Below are positions 2,646-58,637 of a DNA stretch of 64,000 bases, one piece after another. Both the position numbers and the translations under genes were made by a program. Position 1 is the first letter of the stretch, and each line of letters starts with the position of its first letter. The notes beneath the pieces are model-generated. The model saw nothing but the letters and a program-made list of their open reading frames with translations. It had not been told where the DNA came from and made no database searches. Source of the DNA: Zootoca vivipara (taxonomy: Eukaryota); the NCBI RefSeq assembly GCF_963506605.1, contig NC_083281.1, positions 14,012,001-14,076,000 of the forward strand. Reading direction: 5' to 3'.

Positions 2646-2754
2646 CTGTTCCTAGATGATTTCCAAAAAGGATGGGGCATTAGTAAATAATTTGGGAATA
2701 CTCTCTCTCCTGTTTAGAGCCCCTTTGCAGTATCCAGAGGAAAGTCTCTCTCAC

Positions 2755-3159
2755 CTGCTGCTCTGCCTGCTTTCTCTCCTCTGCCTGACTCAGGAGGAAT
2801 CCTTCGGCCAGGGCCACTGCCTGGGAACTGGTCTCCACTCTACATTCCCTCACCCAGCTCTCCATCTCTGGAGGAAGGACAGCCAGGAACTGCTCCAAGA
2901 TCAGCAGGTCCAGCATCTCAGCTTTCGTGTGCCTTTCTGGCCTCAGCCATTGATGGACAAAGTGGTAGAGTTGACTGCAAACCTCTCGGGGTCCTTTGGC
3001 CTCCTGGTAGCAGAACTGCCTGAACAGCTGGCTCTGCACAGCTGAGTAGAGGGTGTCCTCCTCACTCAGAATCTTCTGCATGGAGTTTCTCCCACTGCTC
3101 TGAGTTTCCAGGGCATGGCCTCTTCCTGCTTCAGGGCCAGCTGAGTCTTGCTCATCCAT
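2755..3159 (-). CDS. SCAN domain exon of a ZSCAN/ZKSCAN-like gene (first coding exon; gene continues left of the window)
   Basis: MDEQDSAG...[62 protein letters not shown] is a SCAN domain; acceptor at 3250, CAG|gtgaga donor at 2755. Confidence 0.9.
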
Positions 3160-3455
3160 CTGTGCTCCTGGGAAGTCTCCAAGAGATCGGAAGGAGCCCC
3201 TTGGTCCTCTGCCAAGTTCAGTGGGTCCTAATGCGAGGTGCAACAAATCCTACAAACACATTCTTCTATTATAAGACTAATACGCAGCCAAGAGAAGAGG
3301 AATGTTCCCTGAGGAAGCGTGGATGAGTCTTGCTAGGAACAGCACTGGATTGCACCACAGCTCAGACTCCAAGCTGTCTGCAAAACTGCAAAAAAGGACT
3401 GAGGAGAAGGAAGAAGCAATAACTGTAAATGACAAGTGAGTCATTTGTATCAAGT

Positions 3456-9341: not shown

Positions 9342-10086
9342 ACTTACGGACTCATTGTTAAAACCATGTTTATGGAAGACAATCTTAGTCGTCTATGAGG
9401 GATCGCCAAAGAAGAAGAAGATTCCTGCGGCAACTCCCTATCAAAAATTCTGATATGTGTACATTAACTTGATGAAGGCAGCTGGATGATGAAGGCAGGA
9501 TCACAAAGGAATAGGCAAATAGCTTCACATAGCAGGTATTCCTTCCTTGGCAGCTTCTAGACATATGCGTAGGCTTTTCTCAGGAAATCTTACATCTGAA
9601 AAGGCAGCACTTGCCAAATAAATGTACTCTCTTCCGAGGAAAAGACCTGCTTTCTCAGCAAAGTGTGAATGCTGTCAGTGAGCCAAACATCCCTAATGAT
9701 ATTTCAGTAAGCTGTTGGACCTGTAGAGAGGTGTAGTAAGCAGGACACTATTATTTCTTTTCCAGAGAGGCCACGTAAAACCAGGTGTTAGGTTGGTGAA
9801 GGCTACACAGTGGGGCGTGTCATTTAAGGACGAAAAAAAATTTTTTTTTTATTTCCTCAATGAGGGGTTCTAAAAATATGTTATTGCACATGAGGAATCC
9901 AAATCTGCAATTATTTTTATGATTGGTTGATGTTTAGCTTGGTAAATTGAGATCTGTTTGAAATACACTAAAAAAAAGCCAAAAACTCGCATTTTGAAGC
10001 GAAGTTAAAGTATTTAATCATTTTATACAAGCGAAAATATAAAGAAATTTTGTTTCCAGCTGTAACAACATATCATTACTTTATCT

Positions 10087-12112: not shown

Positions 12113-12842
12113 GCATGCTCTTAGGTGACCCACCTTGACCCTGATATAAGCTGGAGAAAAGGGACATTCTAGGAAGCATCGATTGTCCTCTCTGCTGCTC
12201 CAACTGCCACTCCCTGTTTGGTTCCTGTACTTCAGAAGTTACGTGGGCAGCCACATAGGTAAGAATTCAAGAGGTTGCCTATTGCCTCGCCCTGAGTCCA
12301 GGCCTGTTGGTCCACCTGGCTCAGCATCGCCTTCAAAGACCAGCTATGGGTGGCTCTCTAGAGTTTCGGACAGACACCTTTTGCCAGCCCTATCTGGAGA
12401 TGCTCAGGATTGAACCTGGCAAGCAACACATGTGCTCTGCTGCCCCTGACTTGTGGCCAAGAGGGAGGGTCTCCTAGGAGGGGATGCCTAATATTTTTAT
12501 TTTTATTTTTTAAAAAACGACAACCTCTAAGCATTGTACAAGGCAGCAGCTGGAACATCTGGTAGGTGGTGCGGTGGGAAAATCTCCCACCAGAGGTTTG
12601 CGCACCGGCCGTGTCTTTCCTGAGGCCAAAACTCAGAGGCAAGGCACATTAAAGCAAAGAAAACAGGAATTACCAATTTATTCCATGCTCAAGCCTAGAG
12701 GTCCAGCTACTAACCATCTGGAAAGCTAGCAAAAAAGAAAAGAAAAAAGGACAGGACTCCAAACAAAGGGCTCGAAGGATTTTTATACCCATTTTGAAAC
12801 AAGCAGGTTTTTACTTGCAGGGTGGGCTATCTGTCTTCCTCG

Positions 12843-14138: not shown

Positions 14139-14430
14139 TGGCTAGGAAGCAGCGATGGTAGCCATGACACAGGGAGTTGAGCTGTTGACTTCTGCCTCCT
14201 TCATCTCAGTGCTGCCCTCGTAGCATTCAGCAGGGAGGAAGATGGGGGCAAAACCAGAATTAGTTGGCTATGTTCCTGTGCCACCTTCGGTTCTGGTGCC
14301 AGCTTCTGTTGACCTCTCTGCCCCCCCACCCTACCAGTGCCAAGAGGTGGAGACATTACTCTACTCATTATCCTATCCTTCTTTGGCAGAGTTAAGCAGC
14401 CTGTGGACTGGGAACTTTTTAAACGCCACG

Positions 14431-14500
14431 ATGATGAATAAGCCCATTTACATTTCGCTCCAGCGGAAGGGAGAGGCACCTCCGCATAAAGAAAATCGGG
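14431..14500 (+). CDS. NKPD1-like gene A, putative first coding exon (MMNKPIYISLQRKGEAPPHKENR)
   Basis: Strong Kozak context gccacgATG, upstream acceptor, phase 1 donor G|gtgtgt compatible with the next exon; no homology support. Confidence 0.5.
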
Positions 14501-14637
14501 GTGTGTAAGGTACTTTCCTAATCAGCGTCTCAGATTTCAGTTCTCTTCTCCGGTTCTTCTTGCTGCCGGTCCTCATAGTCTGGTGAAATTCAAAAATAAA
14601 TAAAAATCATTTTGATTTCCTTCTATTTGTTTTACAG

Positions 14638-14772
14638 AGGAACCAGGAACAAATGAAACCATTTACTGCCAAGCCTTGGCTGAGACTCTGCACCACATTG
14701 CCCTGCCTGTGACTGTGGGACTCTACGCCCCCTGGGGGCGAGGCAAGAAAAGGCTCTTGTGTGAAATTGAAG
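14638..14772 (+). CDS. NKPD1-like gene A, Walker A exon
   Basis: ttttacag acceptor and gtaagg donor; ETIYCQALAETLHHIALPVTVGLYAPWGRGKKRLL matches the KAP NTPase N-terminus; phase 1-1. Confidence 0.88.
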
Positions 14773-15093
14773 GTAAGGACCACCCATCCATCAGACGTGA
14801 GCAGTCGTCACAGTTCAAAGAGAGAATTCAGTGCGTATTTAATTATACAACAGCGAGAGGGTCATTCACCGTTTTGGCAACCCCAGTGCCCAAGGCAGCT
14901 TTCCCCAACCTAGTGCCCTCCATAAGTTTTTGGACTGCAACTCCCATCAGCCCCGGGCAGTCCAAAACACACAGAGGCCACCCGATTGGAAAAGGCTGCT
15001 GTAGATCTCCAAGCAGGACCTGCTGACTGCCAGAGGCCCTCTGTGATTCAGCTGGAGCACCTGAAATCCATTTCCCCATATGGCCTCGGCAGG

Positions 15094-15433
15094 ACTGAGG
15101 GGTGATATGATAGCCATGTTCAAATATATGAAAGGATGTCATATGGAGGAGGGAGAAAGATTGTTTTCTGCTGCTCCAGAGAAGCGGACACGGAGCAATG
15201 GATTCAAACTTCAAGAAAAAAGATTCCACCTAAACATTAGGAAGAACTTCCTGACAGTAAGAGCTGTTCGGCAGTGGAATTTGCTACCAAGGAGTGTGTG
15301 TACTCTCCTTCTTTGGAGGTCTTTAAGCAGAGGCTTGACAGGCACATGTCAAGAATGCTTTGATGGTGTTTCCTGCTTGGCAGGGGGTTGGACTGGATGG
15401 CCCTTGTGGTCTCTTCCAACTCTATGATTCTAT
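15094..15433 (+). mobile_element. CR1 LINE 3' fragment
   Basis: [11 protein letters not shown]...[28 protein letters not shown]; attctatg tail. Confidence 0.92.
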
Positions 15434-15519
15434 GAGGTGCAGCACTAGAATGGGTCCTCATTGCCCTGCAACCTGGCCAACCATTATGAGAGATTATGGT
15501 AGCAGTGTGTTGTGTATGG

Positions 15520-16080
15520 TGTGTTAGAGGAGGGGTAGTACCTCTAGTGGGGGATACATCATGCTCCTTCTGGAGTAGTTTTTCCACCTTTGGTCCCCAC
15601 CCTGCACTCAGGTCTCACTTGGGGCTCCTAGAAGCTGTCCGCAGGTGACAATGGCCACACCCTAGGAAACGGCTTAGACTGGCCAGCTAAACCAGGCAAA
15701 GACAGCTGATGGGTCTCAAACCCTCAATGAGTTAGGGGCTTCCCCTGAATGAGTGGGTCAAGAAGGCAGTTTCTGCATGTGCTGTAGAAGGAAGTGAGGG
15801 GCGGGTGGTCAGCAAGCCCATCTAGGAGAAGGAAAATTCTGATCCTAAACCAGAGGTCGGCAACCAACTGGCCCATGGCCGTTCTGGAGATCTGCATGGG
15901 GATTCTGTGCTTTTTTTCGCGGCACCATTTTTTCCCTTGCCGCTGGGACTGACCTCCGGGGTTGTCTGGGCAGCCCAGGACCTCCAGACACACTGCCCAG
16001 GTTTGTGCCCTGGGGAGGTCATTTCAGTATGCTTCACCCCCTGAGGCGCACTCCAGTGTCTCCACCGGGGTATCCAATAC
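15520..16080. mobile_element. interspersed repeat, probably RTE-LINE 5' region derived
   Basis: Reverse-complement matches at 24650-24965, 27965-28050, 30535-30845 and 50545-50757; ggagaaggaaaa motif recalls RTE 5' UTRs. Confidence 0.6.
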
Positions 16081-16307
16081 ATCTTTCCTGTTCAGGCGGA
16101 CCTTGTATCCCAAGAGCGTGGTCTGCAGCAGCATGCTGATGAATTGGGAACTGGGGTGAGCACAAGGTGTAAGAACCTCTGCAGAGTCTGCTGGATCAGA
16201 GCAATGCCCCATCTAGTCCAGTGAGTTTCATAGTTTACCCATGCGCCACATGAAGGACTTTCGTTCATTTTGTCTGGAATTTTCCAATGTGATGCTCTCC
16301 ATTGCAG

Positions 16308-18055
16308 ATCACATGCGCTGGCTAAGCAAACAAACCAGAAACAAAGCTGGAAGGACCACGTACTCCCTGCTTTCGTTCCTCTGGCACATCATCTTCGCTC
16401 ACCCCCTTCTGCGCTCAGCAAAGCCTGAAGGCACCCACTATATTTTTATCAACTTCAACGCCTGGGAATATGCAGGATGCGATCATACCTGGGCCGGCAT
16501 CATCACAACACTGCTGGATGAAATCGAAGGCAATTACAGGATCCCATTCAGCACTTTTCGGTCCTTTGGTGTGCAATTCAAGGAAGAGCCGGTTACGCGG
16601 AAAACGAAATGGGTTTTGAAAGGATGGAGCAAGCTCTTCTGGTTTTGCCTCTTGTGTCTGATCCTTGGATTGTTTCTGAGCACAATGCTGACGAGGCTGA
16701 AATTGGGCAGCAGTTTTTGGGAAAGCATGGCATACACAACAGCAGTAGTGCTGGGCGCATTTTCTCTGCCTTTCATGTGCTGCACGAAAAACATTTTCTT
16801 CACCCTGAAAAAGAAACTCCAGTTGAAGATGAACGCCAAGGACCAACTGGGCTTCATGCACCTTGTGAAGAAAGAGGTGAAAACAATCACTCATTTCCTA
16901 CAATTCATGGCGTTCGAGGAGGACCGAGAGATCCGGGTGGTCCTGAAGATCGTCAATTTAGACCTCTGCACTCCGGACAAAGTGGTGGCCGTCCTAGACG
17001 CCATCAAAATCCTCCTTTCAGACGAAGACACTCCATTTATCACCATCTTGGCTGCTGACCCAGGAATCCTCGTGGAGAGCATTCAGTTGTCAAATAACAC
17101 CTGCAGCAATGGCTACTTGTACTTAAATCGAATCATCTCTCTCCCCTTCTCCCTGCCCCGAATGAGCTGCAAAGGCAAGAGGCGGATGCTCACAGGGATT
17201 CTGAATGGAAAAAGGAAACGGGGGCAGGATTGTGCTACTAATCAGGAAACACGGGCTCACAAGCAAAACAGCAAAGGGGTCCAAGAAGCCAAGGGCTCGT
17301 TGGCCACAGAGGAAGTCCAGCACATCTTCCAAGACATGAGCCATGAGAATTTTGAAGACTACATCCCAGGAAATTTTGTCCAAATGAACCGGGTCGTCAA
17401 CACGGTGCTGACCATTAGGTCCATGCTTGACCTAGGATATAAGCCCCACCCTGGGCTGAATTTCAGTAGGGAAGATGGCAGGTTGGTGACCAAAGAGGTG
17501 GTCGATTGGGTTATCCTCGCCCATTTTTGGCCTTGCCGCCTGAGCTGGATTTTGCAGTGTGCGGAAGACGAGCAGCAGCAGGAAAAGCTCGCCGAAAGCC
17601 GGGCAAGGGGCTCACAGCTGAAGCAAGGCCATGGCAGAGGTGGAGGAGGAGATCCGCAGGGCAAAGCATTGGAAAGAGACAGCAAGGCATTGTTGCCGTT
17701 TTATGAGGACAATGCTTTGGAGCTGGACAAGATTAAGAACGACATCAGAAAACTTTTGGAGCTCGATGGAGACCCTGACCTTTTCCGAACCTTCTTGCAG
17801 AAGAGCCATTTTACGGTGGGGCGGGCCAGATATTTTTCCAACTTCCTCATCAATTTAGACTTCTCTCTGAAGAGGCAGTTTGAGTTGCAGCGGAGCCTGA
17901 ATCATATAGTCCGGAAGGAAAACAGGGAGGGCGAGTCACCATCTGGGGAGAAAAGTGCTGGGTTTAAAGATGAAGGAAAACTCCAGAGCAGCTCGTTGCA
18001 GCAGAAAGATAACGCCCAAAAAAGAGAGGATCCTAGACACCCTTCAGTAGCCTAG
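16308..18055 (+). CDS. NKPD1-like KAP-family P-loop NTPase A, large terminal exon (total about 650 aa)
   Basis: FNAWEYAGCDHTWAG, two TM helices, DQLGFMHLVKKEV, VVLKIVNLDLC, YLNRIISLPFSLP, WPCRLSWILQ, LLELDGDP; ttgcag acceptor at 16307, phase 1. Confidence 0.93.
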
Positions 18056-18755
18056 CGTCCTTCAGATGTTTTGGACTACAATACTGAGATCTGATGGATT
18101 CAACTGAATTTCACTGCAGATATTTGTGGGGTTTTGTGGGGTTTTTAAAAAAAGCCTGCATGGGACAGGAAGAGAGGAATGAAGTGTGCTGTATATGATA
18201 TGCATTTGTTACAAATACCAATCTCACCCCCAAATTAAATTATGTCTTATGAAAACACTACATTATTTTGTCTGTCATTTACTCTGGTCATTTCATGAGT
18301 TTGGATCATTTTCGCCACCACCACCACCTCATTCTACAGCTCCCAGAATCTCAGCTCTGCAGCCTCTTTTTCAGTGTTGCACAAAAACCACAGTCTGACT
18401 TTGGCTTCTCTCCCCTACACCTAGGTTCAGACTTATCACCTTAACCTTTTTTTTTAAGCCATCCAAGTTTGTGGCCATCACTCCCGCTTGTGGGAGCAAA
18501 TGCCATAATTTATTTATGTATTTCATGCCGTGCTTTTTTCTGGGGGGATGCATGCCCCAAACATTTTGTGAATCTAAGTTTGTCCTCATTGAGGGACAGT
18601 ATTTCATCATGAGTAGGAAAATGAGAGCACCTCCTAAACATATTTTTTAAGGAAAAAAACCACTGATTTTATGTATATACTGGCTCATTTTTTTTAAAAA
18701 AAAAACCCATCCTCAATGCAATTCACTTTGTGAATTACATTCTTTTGCTTCTCCC

Positions 18756-18792
<37 letters not shown>

Positions 18793-18793
<1 letters not shown>

Positions 18794-19076
18794 TGCCTGT
18801 TGTCTTTGTCCATGGAGTTTTCTTGGCAGGGATACTGGAGTGGCTTGCCAGTTCCTTCTCCAGGTGGATCACGTTTAGTCAAAACTCTCCACTATGACCT
18901 GTCCATCTTTGGTGGCCCTGCATGGCATAGCTCATAGCTTCTCTGAGTTATTCAAGCCCCTTCGCCACGACAAGGCATTGATCCATGAAGGGGATCTGTG
19001 GTCCATGGGGTCACGAAGAGTCGGACACGACTAAACGACTAAACACCACCACCAACACCAACAACAACAACAACAA
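18793..19076. mobile_element. BovB/RTE LINE remnant: inverted 5' piece joined to the 3' tip
   Basis: 18793-18995 reads as a BovB-like 5' region on -; 18997-19044 is the BovB 3' end gtccatggggtcacgaagagtcggacacgact on + with a (CAA)n tail. Confidence 0.75.
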
Positions 19077-19364
19077 TATAATTATTTATACCCCGACAAT
19101 CTGGCTGGGTTTCCCCAACCACTCTGGGCAGCTTCCAACAGAATATTAAAATCTTCCAGCTGATTAAGTAGATTGTATCTTATGAAGATTATGGGTAAAT
19201 AAATCACACCAGTGACCTGAGGATTTCAGGCAGAGTTGCTGAACTTTTATTTCTGGAGTTAGGGACCACAGTGCTTCCCTGCTATAAGAAATAAATAAAT
19301 GTTGAAGTGGCCTTCATCAAGTCCACCTCTTGCTCCAGGTTCCAGTAGCAATTTCCAGCACGCC

Positions 19365-19688
19365 TCAGGTGCACAGAACCTGGTTGAGCTGGTTATTTTC
19401 CCTGGAAAAGTTCACGGACCAGGTGCTTCCTCTCGGCGTGTTCTCTTGCACGCCTAAATAGGTCTTATTTCTGAAGACCACCATGGGAGATGATGCCGAA
19501 GGGGCCTGAGAAGGCCCTGACCCAAGGAAATAGGCACTGAAGGTCACCCACTCCCCGAGACCCATGCCAAGGACATCTCTGATTTCGTTCCTGTCGCTGT
19601 AGGCCAGGGCGCGTCCGTTCAAATGGTGCTGCTTCAACCTCTCCTTGTACTGCTGGGAATTTTCCTCTTTAAAGCCAAGCTGGTCCAT
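19365..19688 (-). CDS. NKPD1-like gene B, last exon carrying most of a SAM-like domain
   Basis: ttttccag acceptor, phase 0; MDQLGFKEENSQQYKERLKQHHLNGRALAYSDRNEIRDVLGMGLGEW; AATAAA on - at 19246-19251. Confidence 0.85.
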   Translation of the reverse strand: MDQLGFKEENSQQYKERLKQHHLNGRALAYSDRNEIRDVLGMGLGEWVTFSAYFLGSGPSQAPSASSPMVVFRNKTYLGVQENTPRGSTWSVNFSRENNQLNQVLCT

Positions 19689-20238
19689 CTGGAAAAGAAC
19701 AAAAAGCAGAGGCGGAAACTCACAGCCACGTCCCTCAACATTGTCCCACATATAGGGAAGGCAAGGGGATTTTTTTTTCCTGTCTGGGGGCCATATTCCC
19801 TGTTGGGCAACCTCCCAAGGGCCACATGACCATGGTGGGAGGGGCCAGAGGCAATAAGTGGGTGGAGCAACTAGGGCCTAAACACACACACACCCCACTC
19901 CTCCACCCAGACAGGCAAGAGGCAGAATTAGAATTCAAGGCCAAGGAAAAACACCCGAGGTACAAAACGAGGGCTACTTCTCTAGAGTGTATTTCTAGTC
20001 AGGTTGGGATAGTTCTGCAGGACATGACTGCAGTCCAACCAGCAATCCATGTTTTGCCCGACAGGCACATGAAAGGAATGAAGCTCACAGAGCTTCCCTG
20101 CAAAATTTGCTAGAGAGAACTCTGTGTGGTCACTTCCTTTGTTTGCCGTAACACTATGCACTTCCTCCCCACTTGGGCAGACTCCTCTTTACTCAACATG
20201 CTTCCAAGCTGACCCTGGACAAGGCAGTGCTCTCCTAC

Positions 20239-22034
20239 CTCCTTGCAGACCTCATCCACCGACAGCCCCAGCAGAATGCATCTGGAGATCCCGTGGCCCC
20301 GCTTGGTCCTCCGCTTCAGGCTGCGGCTGCCCCGGAGCAGCTCCATGTGCCTCTTCAAGGAGGAGTCCAGGTTGACCGTGTAAGGCAGGAAGAAGTTGGC
20401 GTCCTCCACCTGGAACCTGCGGCACAGGAAGCTGTGGAAGAGCTCGGGGTCCCCGTCCAGTTCCAAGAGCTTCTCCAGCTGGCCCTTGAGCATGCCGAGC
20501 TCGTCCATGTACTTCTCGTACACCTCCCACAGGAAGTGGTCGGGAGCCAGCTGGCAGCCTTGGCCCAGGCCCAGCCGGCCCACCTGCTCATCGTCCTCAA
20601 TGCACTGCAAGATCCAGCTCAGCCGGCAAGGCCACTGGCTGGCCAGCAGCACCCAAGAGGCCACTTTCTGTGGACACAGCTTTTCCCGGGGGACCTCCGT
20701 CGCCATGAGACGCACAGTGACAGAGATGGTATTGATGATGCGTCTCATGTGCACCATGTTGTCCGTCATGTACTCCTTCATGCTGTCATCCAGCAGGAAC
20801 TCAAAGGCCTCCTGGATCAGGTCCTTGGCTTTGAAGCCTTTCTTGCACCTTTTTTGGGGAGGTGCTTCCAGCCTGGGACTCACGACAACCAGAGGCACCC
20901 GGCTGCCATCAGCGTGTCGCTCGGGGGCCTTCCGGCTGGCGGAATTGCAACACAAGGGTGACCCAGTGTTCAGCCTCTTCTGGTTTTCCTGTGGAAAGTC
21001 CACTTCGCCCTCCTCGTCCTCCAGGCTTTTCTCCTGCTCCTCCCGGCAGTCGACGGCACACTTCACCAGCTGCATCTTGGTGTGGGTGTCCATCTTGGGG
21101 ACCGAGAACGGGAGGGTGATGATGCGGTTCAAGAACTCGTAGCCATTGTTGGCCATGCCTTTCATGTACAAGGAGCTCTCCACGCAGTCCACGATCACGC
21201 TGGGGTCAGCCACCAGGATGGAGATGAAGGGTGCCTCGTAGTCCGAGAGGAGGATGTTCATTGCGTCGAGGACGCCCACCACTTTGTCTGGGCAGCAGTT
21301 GTCCAAGCTGGTGATCTCCAGCACCACCCTGAGCTTCCTCCGCTGGAAGATCTCCATGAACTTCAGGAACTTGGCAATGATCTTCACCTCCCTCTTGACA
21401 TTGCTCATGAAGCCCAGCTGGGCGCTGAGGTCCGTCCGGTTCATCTGCCTCTCTAGCTGGGCCCTCTGGGTGACGATGACGTTCCGTAGCACCAGGACAG
21501 CCATCCGGATGGACGCCGCCGCCGTGATCCCAACCGCCGTGGCCCCGAGGCCCTCGACAACAGCAATGGCGTCCCCAGAAGCGTTGCCAATGGGGACACC
21601 GAAAACAAAGATGAGGGCTGCGAGCCCGACAGCCACCGCCGCCACCAAGAGGATGGCAGCCCACAGCGGCAGGCAGAGGTACTTCTTGCTGATCCACTCC
21701 TGGCGCAGAGGGGCCTCGACAAGGCCACACTTCCTGCCCACAGCTCTGTAGACACTCACAGGGACCAGGCCAAAGTGGCTCTCGATGCCATCGCACAAGG
21801 CAGTGATGAGACCTGCCCAGAGCTGGTCACTCCCGGCGTATTCCCAGGCACTGAAATGAATGAAGATGTGCTGGACGTTTTTTCTCTGCCGGTGTTGCAG
21901 TGTCAGGACGGGGCGGTAGAAGATCATGAGGAAGACGGCGGAGACCAGATCCCACCCAGAAGTCCCTCGCTGTTTCAGTCTGGTCCGCTGGAATTCCTGC
22001 TGGTCTTTTTTCCATGACTGAAGACGCATGTATT
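20239..22034 (-). CDS. NKPD1-like KAP-family P-loop NTPase B, large exon (total about 756 aa)
   Basis: FSAWEYAGSDQLWAGL, two TM helices, SAQLGFMSNVKREV, VVLEITSLDNC, FLNRIITLPFSVP, QWPCRLSWILQ, ELDGDPELF; ctctcag acceptor, GAG|gtagga donor. Confidence 0.95.
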
Positions 22035-22541
22035 CTGAGAGGGAAAGGAAGAGAGCCAGACCAGAGATGGGTCTACTGTACCCCAGCCAACCAGGGTGTG
22101 TCCTGGTTTCTGTTGATCACACAATACTTTGATTAAATACCCAAACGTTAAGATCCCCTCTGGAGTCCTCGCTCCGTGTGCGACCGCCAAGTGAATTGAG
22201 GTGCATGGCAGCAAAGGAGAGGGCCTTCTCGGTGGTGGCACCTCAAATTTGGAATAGCCTTCTCAGAGAGACTCACCTGATGCCTGCTCTATGGTAAAAC
22301 CCAATTTTCATTTAAAAGGCTTCAAACCAAGTTTAGACAACTTTTTTGAGGATAAGGCAGAGAATTGCAGGTGGGGAAAGTGCTAGAGCACTCATATCCT
22401 TGGGCTTTCTCTTGAGGCATCTGGTGGCCACTGTGAGAACAGGATGCTGGACTTTAGTTGATGTAGCTATAGGGCAGCTCATATGTTCCCATTCTGCAAG
22501 TTCCTTTACATGTCGTGCTTTAAATACGGTAAGCCATACAC

Positions 22542-22677
22542 CAGTCATCCCCAAACTGTGGCCCTCCAGATGTTTTGGCCTACAACTCCCATGATCCCTA
22601 GCTAACAGGACCAGTGGTTGGGGAAGATGGGAATTGTAGTCCAAAACATCTGGAGGGCCAAAGTTTGGGGATGCCTG
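22542..22677. mobile_element. palindromic hAT MITE
   Basis: Same family as 7633-7768; TSD CCATACAC / CCATACAT. Confidence 0.9.
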
Positions 22678-24115
22678 CCATACATTCTCAGCCTCTGGTG
22701 TGATTTCAAGCTGATCTATAAATTGTTTCGTTGCTTTATTTTCTGAGAGTTCCATGCTATTTATTTAAAACATTATTCACTGAATGATTTCCATCTCTCT
22801 AAGCAGTCTGTTTTGCCTCCGGTAGGGGAAACCGAGAATAGTGAGAAAGCTACTTGGTGCAGCAAATAACTGAAATCCAAGCATTGCACCAGTGAAACTC
22901 AAATTCTACGTCAAGAAAAGCAGATGCTGAAAACCAGCATGTGCCCACTTACTTTGCAGGGGCGTCTCTGGAAATGGAGGTAAATGCGTTTTGCTCTCCT
23001 GACACATAGCCCTTGATAGCCCTGCCCTCCACAGTATTTAACTCATCCCCCACCTTCATAAAGCCACTCCTGTTCTTCTTAGCCATCGCCTCATCCAGTA
23101 TGAATGAGTTCCGCAGGCTACACTTGCATTCTGTGAACAAGCACCAGAGGCAGATTTAGGGCAGTGTGAACAGAGCGGTTGCACCAAGCATACAACCATG
23201 GGGGCTGCCTTCTCAAAGCCCGGTGAGCAGTTCCCTAGCTTTGGGGAGGAGGTGTGAGGGCCCTGACCAGGTCCTAGAACCCTCTTCCTCCTTCCCAAAG
23301 CCAGGCAAGCACTGTGGGATGTGACACACAAGTAGCAGTCAAGTACAACATTCCTTGTTTTCCTAGAGTGGACATGCAAGAGGATGTTTGGTCCAGCCAG
23401 TTGGAACTTCCTCTTTCCTCCTGGCTGGGACATACTTCCTTTGCATGTGACTAGAGGTGGGCGTGACCTTACCTGTGCAAGTAACAAAAGCACATGGCAC
23501 GCAACACACTCTCTTTCTTTTACTTCCTCTGTCGTTGGAGCAGCTTTTTAGCTAGAGATGCTCTGTTAGCTTCCAGCCAACAGAGGACAATGGGATTATC
23601 CCCATATGGGATAGATCCACATGTATATATTTTGTAACTAAGTCTGCCTTCAGGGATCCAACTGTGAACTGATGATGTGAGTAAACTTCTTTTATTTACT
23701 TTTAAAAAGATTGTGGCGTGTTTATTCTTTTAAGAGGGATATAAGGAGACTTACCAGGAACCTAATAGTGAGAGGCTTACACAAGCCTGCAACCAGTTAT
23801 CTGCTGTGCATTTAAAAGGGGAATGTGAAACTCTGCTAAGTAAAGGAACTTGCTAGCGCAAGTTAGGAAGGATATTAATAAACAATATATCCTCTCCTGC
23901 CTCCCTGAACATTCCCACAAGCGCTCTTTGGGAAGGAGATAGGAGGGCTCTAGGACCCTGCCAGAGCCTCACACCACCTTCCTAAAGCCCAGCTTAAGAC
24001 GGCACTATGAGGGCTACAGGGAGGGTGTCAAGTGGCCTTGCACAGGGTGGATTATTACCAAGGTCTGCCCTTGTTAGCCCTTCCTTTCCTGGGTCTTCAC
24101 CTTATGAGCACTCAC

Positions 24116-24247
24116 CTCGGATCCTGTCCAGGAGAAAGGCTTTGCAGTGCCCCCACGGTGCATAAAACCCAACCGTCACTGGGGAGGACACGCAGTAGAG
24201 GGCCTTGGCTAAGGAGAAGCAGTAGGCGTCATCTTTGTTCTGGAACT
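24116..24247 (-). CDS. NKPD1-like gene B, Walker A exon
   Basis: ttttgcag acceptor and gtgagt donor; DDAYCFSLAKALYCVSSPVTVGFYAPWGHCKAFLLDRI; phase 1-1, paralogous to 14638-14772. Confidence 0.9.
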
Positions 24248-24649
24248 CTGCAAAAGGAAGAGCAGGGGAGCAGCCAAAAGGCAAATCCCACATCAGATGC
24301 CAACAGCCGCTGGTAGAATCAGCGGCGGCTGATCCTTTAGGGTGAACGGGGACCCTGGCCCACCGACCTCAGGGTGCCTTCAGCCAGCCCCAGCTGCCTG
24401 CTTTCAATTTGCAACAAACACAGTCTGTCAGCTTCCTCCTTCCTCCTTAGACCATGTGGAGGATGGGGATAAAACTAGTGTTCCTTGGCTCCACCTGTCC
24501 TTGGCTCTGGCTCCACCTGCTCTTTGGGCTCCCCGCTTTCCAACTTTACAGTCCCAATGGGCTGGTGGGGGGGCGGGTTGAAGTCCAAAAACATCAGGGG
24601 TGCTGCAGGTCCCCTTTTCCTGCTGCACTCCCTTGGGGGAATCTTGTTG

Positions 24650-24965
24650 GCATCCGTCTGTCTCAAGAGACAATGAAGTCAAACTGCTGTGTTAGCAGCA
24701 CTGAAGTGACCTCCCCAGGTCGTAAGCTTGGGCACTGTGTAGGGAGGTCCCGGGCTGCCCAGACGACAAGGCCCGCCCCCCTCGGCCAAAGGAAAGCAGA
24801 GCAAGACATTTGGCATCAGCTTGGCTGCAGGAGTTGCCAGAAGGAGGTGTACAAGGCACCATCCAACCGCCTTAGGGACTCTGCTCCGGATTTGAGTAGG
24901 GTTCGCTCCTGAGCCTTTTCTTCTCCTGAAGCTGTTCCTCAAGGCAGCGGAGGTTTCCTTCTCTT
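24650..24965. mobile_element. RTE-like interspersed repeat copy
   Basis: Matches 50545-50757 and the reverse of 15840-16050. Confidence 0.6.
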
Positions 24966-25390
24966 AGATGGGCTCCCTTCCCAGGTGGCCGAACCCCCTC
25001 TGCCCCCCACTTCCCTCTGCACCATGTACAGAAACCGAGGGGGAAACTCATGTACCCTTTCAGGAAGTGGGGAGATATGGCTGACACAAAAAAGGGCACA
25101 CCAGCCAATATGACTAGGACTGAATTCCACCTAGCCAAGAGGCAAGGCCTGTGAGGACCAAGTTATCTTACCCTCTCTCTCTCTCCTTCCTTCCCTCCCT
25201 CTCCTTTCTTTGCAACTGGTGTTATGTGGGGAAGTGATGTTTAATATTCCTGAAGAAATCTACCCAGCAGCAGACACCCTTCTTCACGGAATGGTTCACA
25301 GTTACTAACTTGGGCTATGATCCTGAGATAATAACCTCTGGATCCTTCGGGTAAGTACACCCATCCTAAAACCCAAATTATTCCACTTAC

Positions 25391-25409
25391 CTCTGGTCAG
25401 GGAGAGCAT
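25391..25409 (-). CDS. NKPD1-like gene B, putative start exon (MLSLTR)
   Basis: ATG followed by a perfect phase 1 donor G|gtaagt; acceptor near 25465; the frame is also open upstream of the ATG. Confidence 0.5.
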
Positions 25410-50790: not shown

Positions 50791-51652
50791 ATTTATACCC
50801 CGTCCACCTGGCTGGGTTTCCCCAGCTACTATGGGCGGCTTCCCTAAACAGGGCTGCCTTCAGATGTCTTCTAAAAGTCAGATAGGAAGATAGGAGGGAG
50901 TGAGGAATGGAGCGGGGTGGAGAGGGGGCTCTCAGACGCGTCAGAGCCTAGGCACCGACCCAGCTGGCCAGAGGGGGAAGGACAGCACAGCGAGGTGCTG
51001 GAGCCTCTGCAATGCTCCAACCAAAGGACGGGAGAAGGAACGCAGCCCCTTCCAGCGCCCGAATTGAGGCGCACGCCCACACGCAGGGCTAGGGGGAGGC
51101 GCTTTGGGGTGCCCAGGCTTTTATGCTGGCTGAAGAGCCGGAAGCAGCCATTGCCGGGTTCTGAATTGGACTGGGCAGTCATGTTTTCTGATATCTCTGC
51201 ACTGTAAATAATATGCACAATAAAACTCTGAAAGACAGAGCGGAATGGAGCGTCTTTACTCGAGAGTAGCCACAACAATCCCCTGACAGCCTGGTTCACT
51301 GTAACCTCACTTCTCGCAGTAAGGAAACCGTCAGAAGGCCCTCGGAGCTGGACCTCAGTGTCCAGGCTGGACGATGGGGGTGGAGACGCTCCTTCAGGTC
51401 TACTGGGCCATTCAGGGCTTTAAAGGTCAGCACCAACACTTTGAATTGTGCTCAGAAACGTACTGGGAGGCAATGTAGTTCTTTCAGGACCGGTGTTATG
51501 TGGTCTCGGCAGCTGCTCCCAGTCCCCAGTCTAGCTGCCGCATTCTGGATTAGTTGTAGCTTCCAGGTCACCTTCCAAGGTAGCCCCACATAGAGCGCAT
51601 TGCATAGTCCAAGCAGGAGATAACTAGAGCATGCACCACTCTGGTGAGACAG
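50791..51652 (-). mobile_element. L2 fragment split by a GC-rich LTR-like insert (about 50890-51288)
   Basis: L2 3' end at 50791-50885 and body at 51289-51652; the insert has AATAAA near 51219 and ends ctgaca. Confidence 0.6.
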
Positions 51653-51957
51653 TCAGAAAGAGGTGTACATGGTGCCATCCAACCGTCTTAAGAGATTCTA
51701 CTCAGGATTTGTACAAGGTTTTCTCCTGAACCTTTTCTTCTCCCAAAGATACCCCACAAGGCAGCAGAAGTTTAGTACCAGAGCTTTCCATCTCCACACA
51801 CACACACACACACACACACAAAGACAAAGCTCAGGATTTTGCTTTGTTGCCCTGCAAGGTGGCAGAAAAATCAAGACTTCAGAAGAGCTAAAATTGATTA
51901 CGTTGGACTGTATGTCTCCCACCTTTAGGGTGCCAGGATGTATGCAGAATCTTATTA

Positions 51958-52105
51958 TAGAATCATAGAACTGTAGAGTTGGAAGGGACCACGAGGGTCA
52001 TCTAGTCCAACCCCCTGCGATGCAGGAGTCTTTTTGCCCAGCATGGGACTTGAACTCACACCCCTAAGATCAAGCATCTCCCAGGCAGCTCAGTCATATC
52101 GGCAG
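51958..52105 (-). mobile_element. Squam3-like SINE
   Basis: CR1-type tail plus tRNA-like head on -. Confidence 0.7.
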
Positions 52106-52904
52106 GAAGGATTATGCTAAATTGACAGGAGGCTGAATCAATCAATTGGGAGGCCACTCTGTCCACCCTGTTATTTCCCCAACTTTCGAAATACCAGGAA
52201 ATTCCAATGCTTGTCACACATACCTTTTGATTATTTCGAAACGTTATCTTTCCTGAACTAGTTGGTCCTGCTTCTGATCTCTTAGTAAAGTACTGTAGTT
52301 GTAGTTGACAGTTTGAGGTGTTAGCATGGAAATAAAGCCAAGGAACCTCCCCTGGTGCAACAGAAAAAGTACCGTAATACGTACTTGTACATTCGTTTGT
52401 ACAATGAAACCACCCTTCTTTGCCTCTAAGAACTGGACCTTTAACGCAGCAGCAGTAAAGACCTCCCTTTTCATGGAATCTCTGCTTTGATTCCTGGCCT
52501 TTGTCTATTTCAGGTAAACCTTTCCCACCTGAACCGCAAGGTGAATTGATTTCCCCCTCAACAGTGAACGACACCTGGACAGCAGGCAGGAACACAAACC
52601 ACCTGGCTTCAGCCTTTCCCTCTGTGGCGAAATGCAGTATATTTCCAAATTTGCATCGCCTTATACATTAGCATATTCAAATTGGATGTAAATTTGTGCC
52701 CTCTTTTTCAATGTGGTGTGTTTCTTTTCCCTGTTGTTGTTATTATTTTTAGCAATGCAGAAGCGGACACGCTAGTTTTTGGCTATTTCGTGATGAATGT
52801 GACTTTTTCTTCTTCTTAATAATAATAATAATAACAATAATAATAATGGGTTCAGTAGCTTGAGAGCTGCCTTGGGCTTGTTCTGAAAGGCAGCATGCAT
52901 GAGA

Positions 52905-53060
52905 CACAGTGTTGCGTAGTGCTTAGAGTGCTGGACTGGGACCTGGGAGATCTAGGTTTGAATCCCCACTCAGCTATGAAGCTCACTGGGTGACCTTGGG
53001 GGCCAGCCACCATCTCTTCACCTACCCTACCTCACAGGGCAGTTGTGAGGGTGAATAAAT
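52905..53060 (+). mobile_element. MIR/CORE-type SINE
   Basis: tRNA head, ctgggtgaccttggg core, cctacctcacaggg..gttgtgagg. Confidence 0.75.
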
Positions 53061-53087
53061 AATAATAATGTTGTAATAAATAATATA

Positions 53088-53462
53088 GGGACCCAGGTGG
53101 CGCTGTGGGTTAAATCACAGAGTCTAGGGCTTGCTGATCAGAAGGTCGGCGGTTCGAATCCCTGCAACGGGGTGAGCTCCCGTTGCTCGGTCCCAGCTCC
53201 TGCCCACCTAGCAGTTCGAAAGCACATCAAGTGCAAGTAGATAAATAGGAACCGCTCCAGTGGGAAAGTAAACGGCGTTTCCGTGCACTGCTCTGGTTCG
53301 CCAGAAGCAGCTTTGTCATGCTGGCCACATGACCCGGAAGCTGTCTGCGGACAAACGCTGACAAACGCCGGCTCCCTCGGCCTATAGAGCGAGATGAGCG
53401 CCGCAACCCCAGAGTCGGACACGACTGGACCTGATGGTCAGGGGCCCCTTTACCCTTTACCT
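53088..53462 (+). mobile_element. Sauria SINE, full length
   Basis: gggacccaggtggcgctgtgg...cctttacc; TSD TAATAAATAATAT. Confidence 0.93.
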
Positions 53463-53818
53463 TAATAAATAATATGTTGAAATATTATCACCATTATCAT
53501 TATCTGTTGTAGTAATAAGGATGCCCTTTGCATATTCTTTTGGACTGTGGGATGGCAGGCAGGGACTATATTGTATGCAGATAATTAGGGTGGGGTTTTT
53601 CCAAGAATATTGCAATATATGATCAACAGGCAATGAGATCAAACAGGTGGGTGTTCGAACAGCGCACTCATCAACTTCTGAATTGTTTATATACGTGTCA
53701 TGTGCCCTGCTTTTTGAAGGCACGCAAAAGTTTCGCTAGGTCAGGGCGGTCCAACACCCATGCGGCCCCTTTTAAGTAACCCAGTGTGCATTGCTGGTGG
53801 CGACGGAAGCCCCAGCGT

Positions 53819-54783
53819 CAGTGCCTGATTTACATATAAGCTAAACAAGCTATAGCATAGAGCCCCACTCTCTTGGGGCCCTCCAAAAGATTGAAAGGAG
53901 AAAAAACCCTGGATGTACATTTCCAAAATATAAGATAAAAAACAAATAAAATAAAACCTACATAGAAGAGTTTGGATTTGATATCCCGCTTTATCACTAC
54001 CCGAAGGACTCTCAAAGCGGCTAACATTCTCCTTTCCCTTCCTCCCCCACAACAAACACTCTGTGAGGTGAATAGGGCTGAAAGACTTCAAAGAAGTGTG
54101 ACTAGCCCAAGGTCACCCAGCAGCTGCATGTGGAGGAGTGGAGACACGAACCCGGTTCCCCAGATTATGAGTCTACCGCTCTTAACCTCTACACCACACC
54201 ACCATACAGCAACAGTGTTTTGTTTTGTTTTGTTTTGTGTTGTGTAGGCTCCTGTGATGTAGGTCATGGGCCCCACCTGCTAGCCTACTCCCTAAAGTAT
54301 CACTGGTTTGCTCATTTCTCTATATAGGGTGCCTACATTCTGCTATTTATAATTATTAGTAGTTTGCATCATACCTATTACTGAGGTGCCTATTAAGTCC
54401 ATAAATTACCATCTAGCATATAGTTACAGGTAGGTAGCCATGTTGGTCTGATGTAGTCGAAACAAAAACTTTAAAAAAAATGCCTTCCAGTAGCACATTA
54501 GAGACCAACTAAGTTTGTCATTGGTATGAGCTTTCGTGTGCATGCACACTTCTTCAGAAGTGTCCTAGCGAAACGTTTTGCGTGCCTTCAAAAGGCAGGG
54601 TACATGACACACATATACTGGAAGGAATTTTTTTTATTTTTTGTTTCATCTAGCATATATTCAACACACACACACACAAAAAAAACCAGCGACCATTTGT
54701 TGTGGACAAAGGATAGCTGGACATAGAAAGGGCCCCATTACCTTCAGGAACTGAGGGCCTCATCAAACCTCAATCCGGCCCTG
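53819..54783. mobile_element. hAT-like element with nested tRNA-SINE (53965-54200) and Penelope end (54423-54558)
   Basis: cagtgcc...ccggccctg ends; TSD CCCAGCGT / CCCAACGT. Confidence 0.85.
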
Positions 54784-55193
54784 CCCAACGTCCAGGATCC
54801 CTCCCACGACCGGTTTGATCTCTCGCGGCAGAAGCAGCAACAAATCCTTGCACTCTGGTGTTGTCCGAAAGTCCCGCCTCCCCACTTTCCCAGGAGCGTT
54901 CAGAGGGATGGAAGGCAGGGACCTTCAGTCCCAGCAGCAGCTGCTCTGTAGGGGCAATACTTGTTGGGAAGGGCGGCCGGGTCACATGCCATTTCCTGGA
55001 CTAAAGAGTTCACTTTGCCCACAACTGACTCCGCCTCTTCGTTCTGAGCTGCATCTGACTCCAGCCTTGGCAAGGGCTGAGACAAGTCTGCAGTTGGTGA
55101 GACCCCACGCGCCCTCGATGGATCCCCCCCTCTGCTACACCGAGCCGGGAAGGCTCTACGCAACGGCAACCCGAGAGAATCTGTTGGCCTTAC

Positions 55194-55936
55194 CAGTGGC
55201 AACCTGCTTCCTGGGATGCTGGGGAAGTCGTGGTGTTCCATGTGGTAACCCACGTTGAAGGTGACCCAGTTCAGGGGCCCGTAGTAGGAGACAGTGTCGT
55301 AACCCTTGGCATACATGTAATGCTCAGCGATGAAGTGCCCAGCGAAGGGGTGGAGGCCCATGGCCAAGAAGGAACCGGCCACCATGTAGACCAGGGGCTT
55401 GGATCCCCATAAGCTGTATATGAGGAGGTTGTAGCCCATTTGGACAGCCAAGTTAATGACCTCCATCTTGGAGAGAGGCTTGGGGTTGATGCAGAGCGGC
55501 CGCAGGACGTAGAAGAGAGGCTGCAGGAAGAGCCAGAGGACCTTCCTCAGCGGGGTGTTGAAGAAGTGCCCCTCAAACTCGGTGGGGACGTCGACGTCCA
55601 GCCCTTCCATGGCCAGGAAGCGGTGGTGGTCGACGTGGTACTTCTTGAAGGAGGTGGCATAGGGGAAGCCGATGGGCAGGTTGGCGAACATGCCAAAGAA
55701 GCGGTTCCACTTGGCCCTCTTGTTGCCGAAAGGCACGTTGTGGGCGATGTCGTGGATGGCCAGCGTCATCGAGTGGTTGAGGCAGCCCCCGAAGGCGTAG
55801 GCCCAGAAGAAGACCCACTTCCAAGGCAAGCCCTTCACCAGGTAGCAGGCGAGAATCTGAGTCAGGACCATGAGGGTCACCACCCACTTCATGTTGGGAT
55901 CGGGGCCCATCAGCTTCTTGATCTCCGGGTACTTGG
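55194..55936 (-). CDS. DEGS2-like sphingolipid desaturase/hydroxylase, exon 2 (743 nt)
   Basis: His boxes HDIAH, HVDHH and HMEHH; [24 protein letters not shown]; acaacag acceptor, gtaagg donor. Confidence 0.95.
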
Positions 55937-55978
55937 CTGTTGTGGAGGGAAAGAGGGGTGAGAAGGGGAAGCAATGGC

Positions 55979-55980
<2 letters not shown>

Positions 55981-56054
<74 letters not shown>
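55981..56054. repeat. (AAT)n(AAC)n compound microsatellite, tail of an L2 fragment (56058-56275, -)
   Basis: Direct reading. Confidence 0.9.
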
Positions 56055-56056
<2 letters not shown>

Positions 56057-57864
56057 ACTTATTATTTATACCCTGCCCATCTGGCCGGGTTCCCCCAGCC
56101 ACTCTGGGCGGCTTCCAACAAAACACCAAAATACAGAAATCCATCAAACATTAAAAGCTTCCCTAAACAGGGCTGCCTTGAGATGCCTTCTAAAGGTCTG
56201 GTAATTGTTGTTCTCTTTGACCTCTGGTGGGAGGGCATTCCACAGGGTGGGCGCCACTACAGAGAAGGCCCTCGGTAGTGGCACCCACCCTTGGTGTGGC
56301 AGTGAATCGCAAGCAGAGAGAGGGTGTGATTAACACTGGTGTCCTGCTGGGAATTTATTTATGTATGCTACTACTGCGGCCCGTGTTTCATTAGCCCAGA
56401 AATGTAAAACCAGCAAGGTTCCAACTAACAAAGAGTAGCAACTTAAGTTGACAGAATATGCACAACTCGCAGACTTAGCATATAGAATAAGAGAACAAGA
56501 AAAACATGTAAGCTGCAACATCTCCTAGTGTGTCACATAGTAATAAAGTTGGGCCATTCAGGGGCGAACGAAGGTATTGTGTATATCGCTATGTAGGGTG
56601 CATGTGCGGCGTCGCTATGTACGATGCCTGCACCGTACGTAGTGACGCTGCACATGCGTTGTACATAGTGGTTTGCCGCTGCCGGCGTTCCAGCATGGGG
56701 TGGTGGAAAGGCTAAATAAAAATAGGTTGTGCATAGTCTGACATGCTTTAATTTAATTAATCCATCCATCCATCAATCAATTAAATGAAACAGAGATCTG
56801 CAGGCACACCCTTCTTGAGAATGTTTATATCTGATTTCATGGGTACATATCGGTGTGAAAGATTGGAGGAGAGATAGAGGGATTATATATGCTCACCTTT
56901 TGCTCCGGGTTTTTAAGCTCCGGGTTCATGTGGTCTTTTTCCCCCACCCTGGAGCTTTCCCTGCAAAAACCCGCTTTTTAATTCAGAAGGGGCCACCCAC
57001 ACCATACGTTTGAAGCGCTGTGACACCGCTTCATAAACAGTTGGGGCTCCCCTCCAGCCAATAATCCTGGGAGTCGTGTGTCACTTTCTGTTTCAGAAAG
57101 AATTCTGTAGATTTTGGCCATCTTTATAGGTGCTTGAGTTAAGATTCCTGTATTGCGGGGGGGGGGCTAGATGACCCTCAGGGTCCCTGCCAACTCTACA
57201 GTTCTATGTTTCTATGACTAGGCAGCAACATGTTTCCACCCAGACACGAAAGATGAGTTCCAGGAACCTTCTATAACATTCCTGAGAAATCCAGTATTTA
57301 TAATTATTAGTAGTTTGCATCATATCTCACCTATTATTATTTTATGTTATAGCAAGTTTCTAGAGACTAGATTATGAGTCTTTGTAAATGGCGTTTCTAA
57401 AGGAACTTTTGTTATTGCCAACTGCCAATGTGTTTGCATTATTAAGTTTGTTACCAATAAAAAAATCATTTCAAGTTAGAGATTCATAATTATTTCACTA
57501 TTAATATACTTCTTCTTAACTGTATTTCAGTTCAATGATTACTTTGATAAAATACATATTTTGGGATGTGCAAATGGCTTGAGATACCTATTAGGTCCAT
57601 AAATTACCATCTAGCATCTATTAAAAAAACAAAAACAAAAATAACCCAGCACCATTTGTTGTTGGCAAAGGGCAGCTGGACATAGAAAGGGCCCCATTAC
57701 CTTCAGGAGCTGAGGGCCTCATCAAACCTCAGTCCGGCCCTGCTTGTGGCTGGTAGCCATGTCGGTCCAGTTCCCTGCCCGCCTGGTCCCGGTTCACCCA
57801 CTTTGCCCTTCCCCCCACCCCTCCAGTCTCTGCCCTTTGCAGCGTCCTCCACCTGCAACCTCAC

Positions 57865-57946
57865 CTAGGATCTCCTTCCTTCTGCTTGTGTGGGGCTGCT
57901 CCGTGTAGACCCACTCGAAGTCATCTCTGCTCCCGGTGTTGCCCAT
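57865..57946 (-). CDS. DEGS2-like gene, exon 1 (82 nt; total 969 nt, 322 aa)
   Basis: [27 protein letters not shown] then G|gtgagg; DEGS N-terminal motif with Gly2. Confidence 0.95.
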
Positions 57947-58637
57947 GGGGAGGACCTCTCTGAGCCTGACTCAAGAAGACTCTCCCCGCTTTTATGGAGA
58001 GTCTCTTGGGGTGTGCTCCCTACAGCCACCTTCTGAGAGTGCGGTGATGGCTCTGAGACTACCCCCGTTGAACCCAAACCCTGCCCAACCTGCTGGGCTA
58101 AAGCACCTGCTCAACCAGTTTGCCCTCCCTGAGGAATTCCTAATTCTATGGGCAACGGTGGCCGAAGGGGTGAGCCGGAATAGATTTGCGCTTTACAAAG
58201 TGTGTCATTATCACATGGAACGAACTCCTCTGTGGTGAAGAGGATGACTTGCTATCTTTGAAGGGGACGTAACTGTGGGATGCTGTGTGCGGTTCTGGTT
58301 TGCGTCGTCTGGAAAAAGGAGGGATTGTCATGCCAGGAAAGCTGTAGCAGCCAGTCAAGGGTAATCGTTAAAATCAAGAGGCTGTAGCAACTCTGCTCTC
58401 TGAAGAAAGATTTCAGCGAACTTCTGGGCCATGTTTAGGAAGGTGTGCTTTGCATCTACCTGTATACTGCTGTAGTTATTTTTCCAATTACTCTTTTGAG
58501 CGATGGGTGGTTTTATTTACCGTTGGTGCAGATCATTACAGGCAGTGTGACCATGAGAACTGCATACAGTGGGAAGGGTGTTTCTCTCTCTGAAACGTGA
58601 AGTACACTGAGCATTTTCTTTGTGTTTGAGGCTATTA

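Follow-up and report, generated by a model that had tools for sequence, protein, structure and literature searches.

In a 64,000-nucleotide stretch of the 1.44-Gb genome of the lizard Zootoca vivipara (C6:14,012,001-14,076,000; hereafter the window, from whose first letter positions are counted unless C6 or C3 is given), two genes of the KAP NTPase family, A (plus strand, 650 amino acids) and B (minus strand, 756 amino acids), lie tail to tail. On balance we favour the view that they are old paralogues of the NKPD1 branch, likely catalytically dead, which are predicted to be membrane-anchored scaffolds and probably act separately. They are additional members of a known family and an already annotated pair of old paralogues, and both stand in the databases as NKPD1-like.

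The PF07693 (KAP_NTPase) profile, at a cut-off of 20 bits, matched A with E 1.4e-17 (87 bits) and B with E 6.1e-20 (93 bits). The stop codons (18053-18055 in A, 19365-19367 in B) are separated by a gap of 1,309 bp, in agreement with the first-pass annotation of this DNA, which had described a tail-to-tail KAP pair with stops about 1.3 kb apart. It had also called the genes strongly diverged and A less GC-rich; A and B are indeed 33.7% identical over 647 columns, with a GC content at third codon positions of 0.63 and 0.83, respectively, in the large exon. The common exon plan that it had described was found in the first three exons (a short phase-1 start exon, a Walker A exon of 135 or 132 nt and a large exon), but B has a fourth exon, overlooked earlier, with a SAM domain of the KIDINS220 type (PF23307, SAM_KIDINS220; E 7e-8 for the exon alone and 2.5e-10 for the whole protein) that is modelled with a predicted local distance difference test score (pLDDT) above 90. 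The four-exon model of B (Table 1) equals RefSeq XP_034975378.2 (P0274) letter for letter and is open over its whole length. The 650-residue frame of A from the ATG at 14431 needs a splice donor after 14500, which is the donor of the RefSeq-named model P0121; donors after 14502, 14504 and 14509 give 48, 30 and 25 amino acids, and the next in-frame Met after the frame of the start exon is at 16313, in the large exon. A recent inverted duplication was ruled out, blastn giving 69% identity over 323 bp of coding DNA and three short matches of 24-68 bp, and so was an antisense overlap of the 3' ends, which are predicted to lie about 1 kb apart.

In active P-loop NTPases the Walker A Ser/Thr and the Walker B Asp are strictly conserved, and replacing either abolishes activity (PMC9599734). 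The Walker A motif ends in G-K-K in A and in C-K-A in B, and the position of the Walker B Asp is taken by Val in A and Thr in B. The Walker A exons named in the first-pass annotation are thus present, but the motif is degenerate in both genes, and this loss of catalytic residues had been overlooked. Among 96 vertebrate NKPD1-type proteins, 77 could be aligned at Walker A and none of these has GK[ST]; Lys is found in 39, Ser/Thr in 7 and GK in 3, and the Lys is gone in NKPD1 proper and in the ray-finned fish copies. The first Walker B Asp was found in none of the 96 vertebrate rows and in four outgroup rows, and the distal LD Asp is present in 92 of the 96. As a control, the KIDINS220 of this genome has GSGKS and IIDGLD. 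The best 150 representatives of a wider search held 134 new ids, of which 68 have both motifs intact, 11 are without both and 2 combine a degenerate Walker A with the Asp; none has GK[ST] without the Asp, and 53 are without one or both regular-expression matches. Because the Walker A Ser/Thr and the Walker B Asp are missing clade-wide, A, B and NKPD1 are likely pseudo-NTPases, as far as sequence can tell.

AlphaFold models of the two proteins (predicted template modelling score 0.73 each; mean pLDDT 73.8 for A and 78.4 for B) showed a P-loop alpha/beta core into which a helical hairpin is inserted after the second strand and before Walker B, followed by a helical C-terminal part, to which B adds a well-predicted SAM. 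The hairpin of the KAP family is present in both (Table 1), with hydropathy peaks of 2.5 in A and 3.0 in B. In VIA comparisons, residues 24-378 of A resembled the P-loop cores of Cdc6/Orc1, ORC and RdrA (Z 11.8, root-mean-square deviation 4.0, 193 aligned; Z 11.2, deviation 4.3, 205 aligned); these matches speak to fold, not to function. Foldseek gave no match at E <= 0.001, the best being no better than 0.014. Against solved structures, the sequence P0001 gave 0 matches and a profile gave three at E 0.4-0.9, two of them Polyhomeotic SAM domains. A predicted complex of A and B (B 10-535, A 28-497, alignments unused) scored 0.00, which is evidence neither way.

A protein search and a PF07693 search of the genome, with family counts that are lower bounds, found at least five NKPD1-type large exons on C6 (A to E) and a multi-exon KIDINS220-type gene on C3 at 26.64 Mb. 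C and D form a tandem at C6 19.81 and 19.83 Mb, beside an EHD gene and 5.8 Mb from A. C and D are the copies nearest to A (45-47% identity); B is 35% and E 28% identical to it, and B and E share 37%. Copy E (XP_034976354.1) lies at C6:20.64 Mb, 6.6 Mb from the pair, and carries the plain NKPD1 name. A distance of 75 kb separates E from Gemin7, which is at C6:20,567,428; the window is 6.5 Mb away from that gene, and neither A nor B is in this GEMIN7 neighbourhood of NKPD1. Presumably PPP1R37 lies beside E, and we take the human order around NKPD1 to be GEMIN7/PPP1R37/TRAPPC6A. None of 6 genome matches to TRAPP (PF04051) fell near E (C6:20.60-20.70 Mb); TRAPPC6A may have been overlooked there through its short exons, or it may have moved. 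A lone C-terminal NKPD1-like fragment of 58 amino acids, 62% identical to A, was also observed between C and D in the opposite orientation, beside a repeat (C6:19,820,118-19,820,291, plus strand); it points to birth-and-death evolution of the A lineage.

Trees were built from 100, 51, 30, 23 and 29 rows picked by hand from a pool of 273 proteins, later enlarged to about 460. The 30-row tree, under LG+C20, had three clades, namely NKPD1 including E (support 100/100), an A-type clade of squamates and a turtle (100/99) and a tetrapod B clade (94/87), and the fork of A, B, coelacanth, lungfish and ray-finned fish copies was left unordered. Under JTT+F+G4 with 51 rows, A, together with a long marsupial row from Antechinus, joined tetrapod B (ultrafast bootstrap 97), as A did in a quick tree of 23 rows (approximate likelihood-ratio test 73). 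With KIDINS220 and ankyrin-poor KAP proteins as outgroups, an LG+G4 tree placed the vertebrate NKPD1-type group in one clade (100/100). A FastTree with four distant ENA rows was rooted on the long A branch, which we took as long-branch attraction, and the tree was rebuilt without those rows. Approximately unbiased (AU) tests on 23 rows rejected a sister relation between A and B of this genome (p 2e-64) and a grouping of squamate A with squamate B (p 3e-7), so that a squamate-only duplication is rejected. The duplication is therefore old, as had been supposed at the first pass, and neither A nor B is the NKPD1 orthologue, again as supposed, since it is E, near Gemin7, that belongs to the 100/100 clade. 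A origin from B is probably right as the best tree, though unproven. Separate fast-evolving duplications were seen in other branches, of NKPD1 proper in snakes and of B in Anolis sagrei (four copies) and frogs. The Antechinus protein, which has KAP and SAM (P0156/P0302) and a very long branch, grouped loosely with the A lineage (80/68); if that placement is true, the A lineage may be amniote-wide and may have borne SAM at first.

The distribution of the two types was surveyed in the best 120 of 490 matches for B and in 88 matches for A. Among the matches listed, lizards, turtles, alligators (crocodilians), frogs, salamanders and the platypus have B-type proteins with SAM; relatives that also carry SAM were found in lungfish, sturgeon, gar and chimaera, and there is one SAM-bearing marsupial copy. 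The paralogue had been regarded as non-mammalian, which fails on the platypus B orthologue with SAM and on the SAM-bearing marsupial copy. No A-type protein from amphibians, crocodilians or the platypus, where B is present, is among the 88 matches listed. SAM is missing from A and from all 27 A-type rows. Scanning the window and 100 kb around each of C/D and E in six frames with the SAM_KIDINS220 profile turned up no further SAM, and the same profile also missed the own exons of KIDINS220 in the 30 kb scanned. Because SAM is found in B-type tetrapod proteins and in the lungfish, sturgeon, gar and chimaera relatives, it is likely ancestral, with likely losses in NKPD1 and in A. The number of A-type copies varies, from three in this genome to at least five in Heteronotia.

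The order of accessions served as a proxy for synteny in relatives, orientation being known from this genome alone. By this measure, A and B are adjacent or near each other in five lizards and a turtle: P. lilfordi (A CAI5780617-19, B CAI5780620-22), Varanus (B XP_044291462-3, A ...464), Eublepharis (B XP_054855940, A ...941), Heteronotia (A-type XP_060113760, 761 and 763, B ...765), G. kuhli, in which the A-type and B-type locus tags are close, and the turtle Platysternon (A TFJ98641, B TFJ98644, both on a contig of 850,349 bp). In Rhineura, Hemicordylus and Elgaria, 3 of the 9 species checked, A and B are on contigs of the same length but their accessions do not follow each other, which is uninformative. 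Such accession order favours an old local duplication.

Identity to the relatives in Podarcis, Rhineura, gecko and turtle is 86, 60, 51 and 44% for A (orthology among A copies being uncertain), 94, 82, 73 and 70% for B, and 97, 79, 75 and 64% for E. By the method of Nei and Gojobori, the ratio of nonsynonymous to synonymous substitution rates (dN/dS) over 436 codons is 0.28 for A-C, 0.26 for A-D and 0.58 for C-D. This comparison, which had been proposed as a check on neutral evolution, points to constraint on A. Across the 27 A-type rows, 101 columns are at least 95% conserved, and in three other lacertids the 1,748-nt exon of A has an open frame at 88% identity. On these comparisons, A evolves fast and is nevertheless constrained.

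Expression was read from transcript contigs, which show presence and not absence, and from raw runs, all with unlabelled tissues. In run X18 (library unrecorded), a contig of 2,238 nt matches the genome with no differences, joins 14509 to 14638 and 14772 to 16308, and ends at 18259, just past an ATTAAA; A is transcribed. The 14509-14638 junction keeps the TAA at 14506-14508 in frame, before Walker A, and the long frame would then begin at the Met at 16313 and span 580 amino acids. Thus of the two genes called intact at the first pass, B is, and A is open only with the 14500 donor, while the sole transcript seen uses 14509. Judged by eye, AAG|GTACTT is closer to the consensus than the productive donor, GGG|GTGTGT. 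In three Podarcis species, A is annotated with isoforms of 625 and 555 amino acids, the latter without Walker A and starting at the same Met as 16313; these annotations are silent on which donors produce them. In X18 the depth is about 11-12 over A exon 3 and 0 over the large exon of B. In the raw runs X19-X21, each read to about 6%, A exon 3 has no reads in the main bins, and traces of B occur in X21 only (depth 0.36-0.92). The Logan proteins P0131, P0134, P0139, P0017 and P0019 were rejected as transcript evidence; they begin inside the large exon or run into an intron.

Table 1. Features of genes A and B in the window.
Feature	Position	Strand	Basis and remarks
A, candidate upstream 5' exon (predicted)	9696..9791	+	tblastn of P. 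lilfordi N-terminal extension P0286; non-coding here; GT donor at 9792; no read support
A, candidate 23-nt micro-exon of the 5' untranslated region (predicted)	12236..12258	+	weak tblastn match, E 0.11; AG/GTAAGA ends; X18 contig has about 31 unplaced 5' letters
A, start exon	14390..14509	+	ATG 14431, good Kozak context; rival donors after 14500 (in frame, 650 aa) and 14509 (TAA 14506-14508 kept in frame)
A, Walker A exon, 135 nt	14638..14772	+	motif 14718-14750, end G-K-K, no Ser/Thr
A, large exon	16308..18055	+	rest of KAP domain, inserted helical hairpin aa 174-232, degenerate Walker B, helical C-terminal part, stop TAG, no SAM
A, 3' untranslated region	18056..18259	+	ATTAAA at 18234; contig end 18259
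B, 3' untranslated region to candidate AATAAA 19251-19246	19246..19364	-	motif only; predicted without overlap with the A transcript
B, exon 4, aa 650-756	19365..19688	-	most of KIDINS220-type SAM (aa 638-701), tail, stop TGA
B, large exon	20239..22034	-	KAP domain, hydrophobic hairpin aa 167-238 (168-237 in the structure model), degenerate Walker B
B, Walker A exon, 132 nt	24116..24247	-	motif end C-K-A; neither Gly nor Ser/Thr
B, start exon, 19 coding nt, phase 1	25391..25409	-	model equals P0274

The neighbours of the pair in the window, identified by profile, are a SCAN/C2H2 zinc-finger cluster, a Complex1_LYR gene, a gene with Ubiquitin_2 and CAP_GLY, a sphingolipid desaturase and a WD40 gene of the WDR62 type. 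We take the Complex1_LYR gene to be SDHAF1 and the Ubiquitin_2/CAP_GLY gene to be TBCB, and the name OVOL3 is likewise our assumption. A SCAN-domain exon at 2680-3249 (minus strand) and the C2H2 cluster lie directly upstream of A. A sphingolipid delta-4 desaturase gene of the DEGS type (47661-57970, minus strand; Lipid_DES and FA_desaturase matches) adjoins the TBCB-type gene. Human DEGS1 and DEGS2 presumably lie outside this gene block, and the desaturase may be a third DEGS paralogue and a lipid-barrier neighbour of the KAP pair.

The pair might instead form a hetero-oligomeric membrane complex, as the first-pass annotation had suggested; the SAM-less A would in that case cap or modulate assemblies of B. 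The neighbourhood of A and B, apparently kept from turtle to lizards by accession order, would fit this, as would the P-loop folds nearest to the model, which form rings or hetero-oligomers. However, A was seen without B in X18 and traces of B without A exon 3 in X21, genes placed tail to tail share no promoter, and A-type copies vary in number and are missing, among the 88 matches listed, from groups that have B. With A nearest to C and D rather than to B, a closed pair does not hold, and we consider such a complex unlikely. About as doubtful, and perhaps a shade less so, is that A and its kin make up a reptile family of rapidly evolving sensors or decoys in innate immunity, an echo of bacterial KAP defence. 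The A group expands repeatedly and has diverged further from its Rhineura and gecko relatives (60% and 51% identity) than B (82% and 73%) or NKPD1 (79% and 75%). In bacteria, NTPases of the KAP and related types take part in defence against phages (Tmn preprint; PMC13552941), and in P0355, a close relative of non-vertebrate type with intact motifs, KAP is fused to NACHT and leucine-rich repeats in an NLR-like manner. Yet positive selection is not evident from the pairwise dN/dS of 0.26-0.58, A is without an effector or sensor domain, and relaxed constraint after the loss of SAM would explain its rate equally well. A broader version, to which we also give a low probability like that of the complex, makes the vertebrate NKPD1-type proteins a clade-wide pseudo-NTPase family with ancestral KAP and SAM, in which the reptile SAM-less A branch is a rapidly duplicating barrier or immune sensor-decoy family, echoing bacterial KAP defence and switched by a conserved splice choice that deletes the P-loop.

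That A is a decaying or mostly unproductive duplicate here, with B alone functional, seems improbable to a greater degree. The sole spliced contig of A does have an in-frame stop at codon 26 and the productive donor is the weaker by consensus, but the large exon is open and conserved in the three lacertids, dN/dS is about 0.27, full-length A models exist in three Podarcis species, and contigs drop minor splice variants. Least probable to us is that A and B are still active NTPases through a non-canonical site, for example one completed in trans by a neighbouring subunit; the Walker A Lys in 39 of 77, the distal LD Asp in 92 of 96 and an invariant Arg could serve it, but both strictly conserved residues are missing clade-wide, and neither NKPD1 proper nor the ray-finned fish copies retain the Lys.

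Several observations also weigh against the reading of A and B as old, catalytically dead and separately acting scaffolds. A keeps Gly-Lys in Walker A and its Arg (R430) is invariant, and nucleotide binding may persist. The second hairpin helix of A is below the hydropathy cut-off. The AU tests keep A with NKPD1 (p 0.32) and an origin on the amniote stem (p 0.26), and the mixture-model tree is without resolution of the A-B fork, which leaves the origin of A from B not established. The dS of A-C and A-D is 1.3-1.5, near saturation. The evidence on expression comes from one contig run and three raw runs at about 6%, and no transcript with the productive 14500 donor was seen in the runs examined. 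The link to skin, given below, is by analogy only.

Under the favoured reading of A and B as inactive scaffolds, the hairpin inserted in the P-loop fold would anchor both proteins in the membrane, the dead fold would then act as an oligomerisation or binding platform, and B would gain extra contacts through its SAM, as is thought for KIDINS220. A would probably have come from a local duplication of a B-type gene before the split of turtles and squamates, lost the SAM exon and evolved at a faster rate, and its lineage would have seeded more copies (C, D and the gecko arrays). The output of A might be tuned by the donors 9 nt apart, one yielding the complete protein and the other a transcript in which the long frame begins downstream of Walker A. 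If human NKPD1 is a guide, A and B would most likely work in a barrier epithelium such as skin.

Compared with known systems, NKPD1 (copy E) is like A and B in its KAP domain with an inserted hydrophobic hairpin, its 132-nt Walker A exon and large exon, its degenerate Walker motifs and its want of ankyrin repeats. It differs in belonging to a separate clade (100/100) at another locus, with 28% identity to A and 37% to B; B has SAM, and A is faster and multi-copy. Human NKPD1 is reportedly tied to dominant lamellar ichthyosis, going by the title of the 2024 work of Komlosi. KIDINS220/ARMS has KAP followed by SAM_KIDINS220, as in B only, in a membrane scaffold architecture, and KAP proteins have been proposed to assemble membrane signalling complexes (PMC4632323); it is unlike A and B in its ankyrin repeats, four transmembrane segments, many exons and intact GSGKS and IIDGLD. 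Ank families matched neither A nor B and were found on P0389. The bacterial KAP/YobI NTPases (PifA, Tmn) and RADAR RdrA share with A and B the Pfam family or the P-loop fold and the membrane association, RdrA being among the top structural matches; Tmn is an active phage-defence ATPase (Tmn preprint), whereas A and B are without the catalytic residues. NKPD1 appears in a skin proteomics table (PMC13400667), its variants have been related to depressive symptoms (PMC5984098), and an XPR1-KIDINS220 preprint adds to the KIDINS220 literature. Our literature search found no study of the A and B paralogues; the founding KAP paper (Aravind 2004), which lay outside what could be checked, may already note the motif loss.

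Human NKPD1 is routinely called an NTPase, and our sequence comparison suggests that the whole vertebrate group is catalytically dead. It also suggests that NKPD1 descends from a scaffold like KIDINS220 and has lost SAM. If the group is dead, finding its partners would make more sense than looking for ATPase inhibitors. The lizard locus retains both B, which is likely the ancestral form, and A, an offshoot that evolves fast and is multi-copy.

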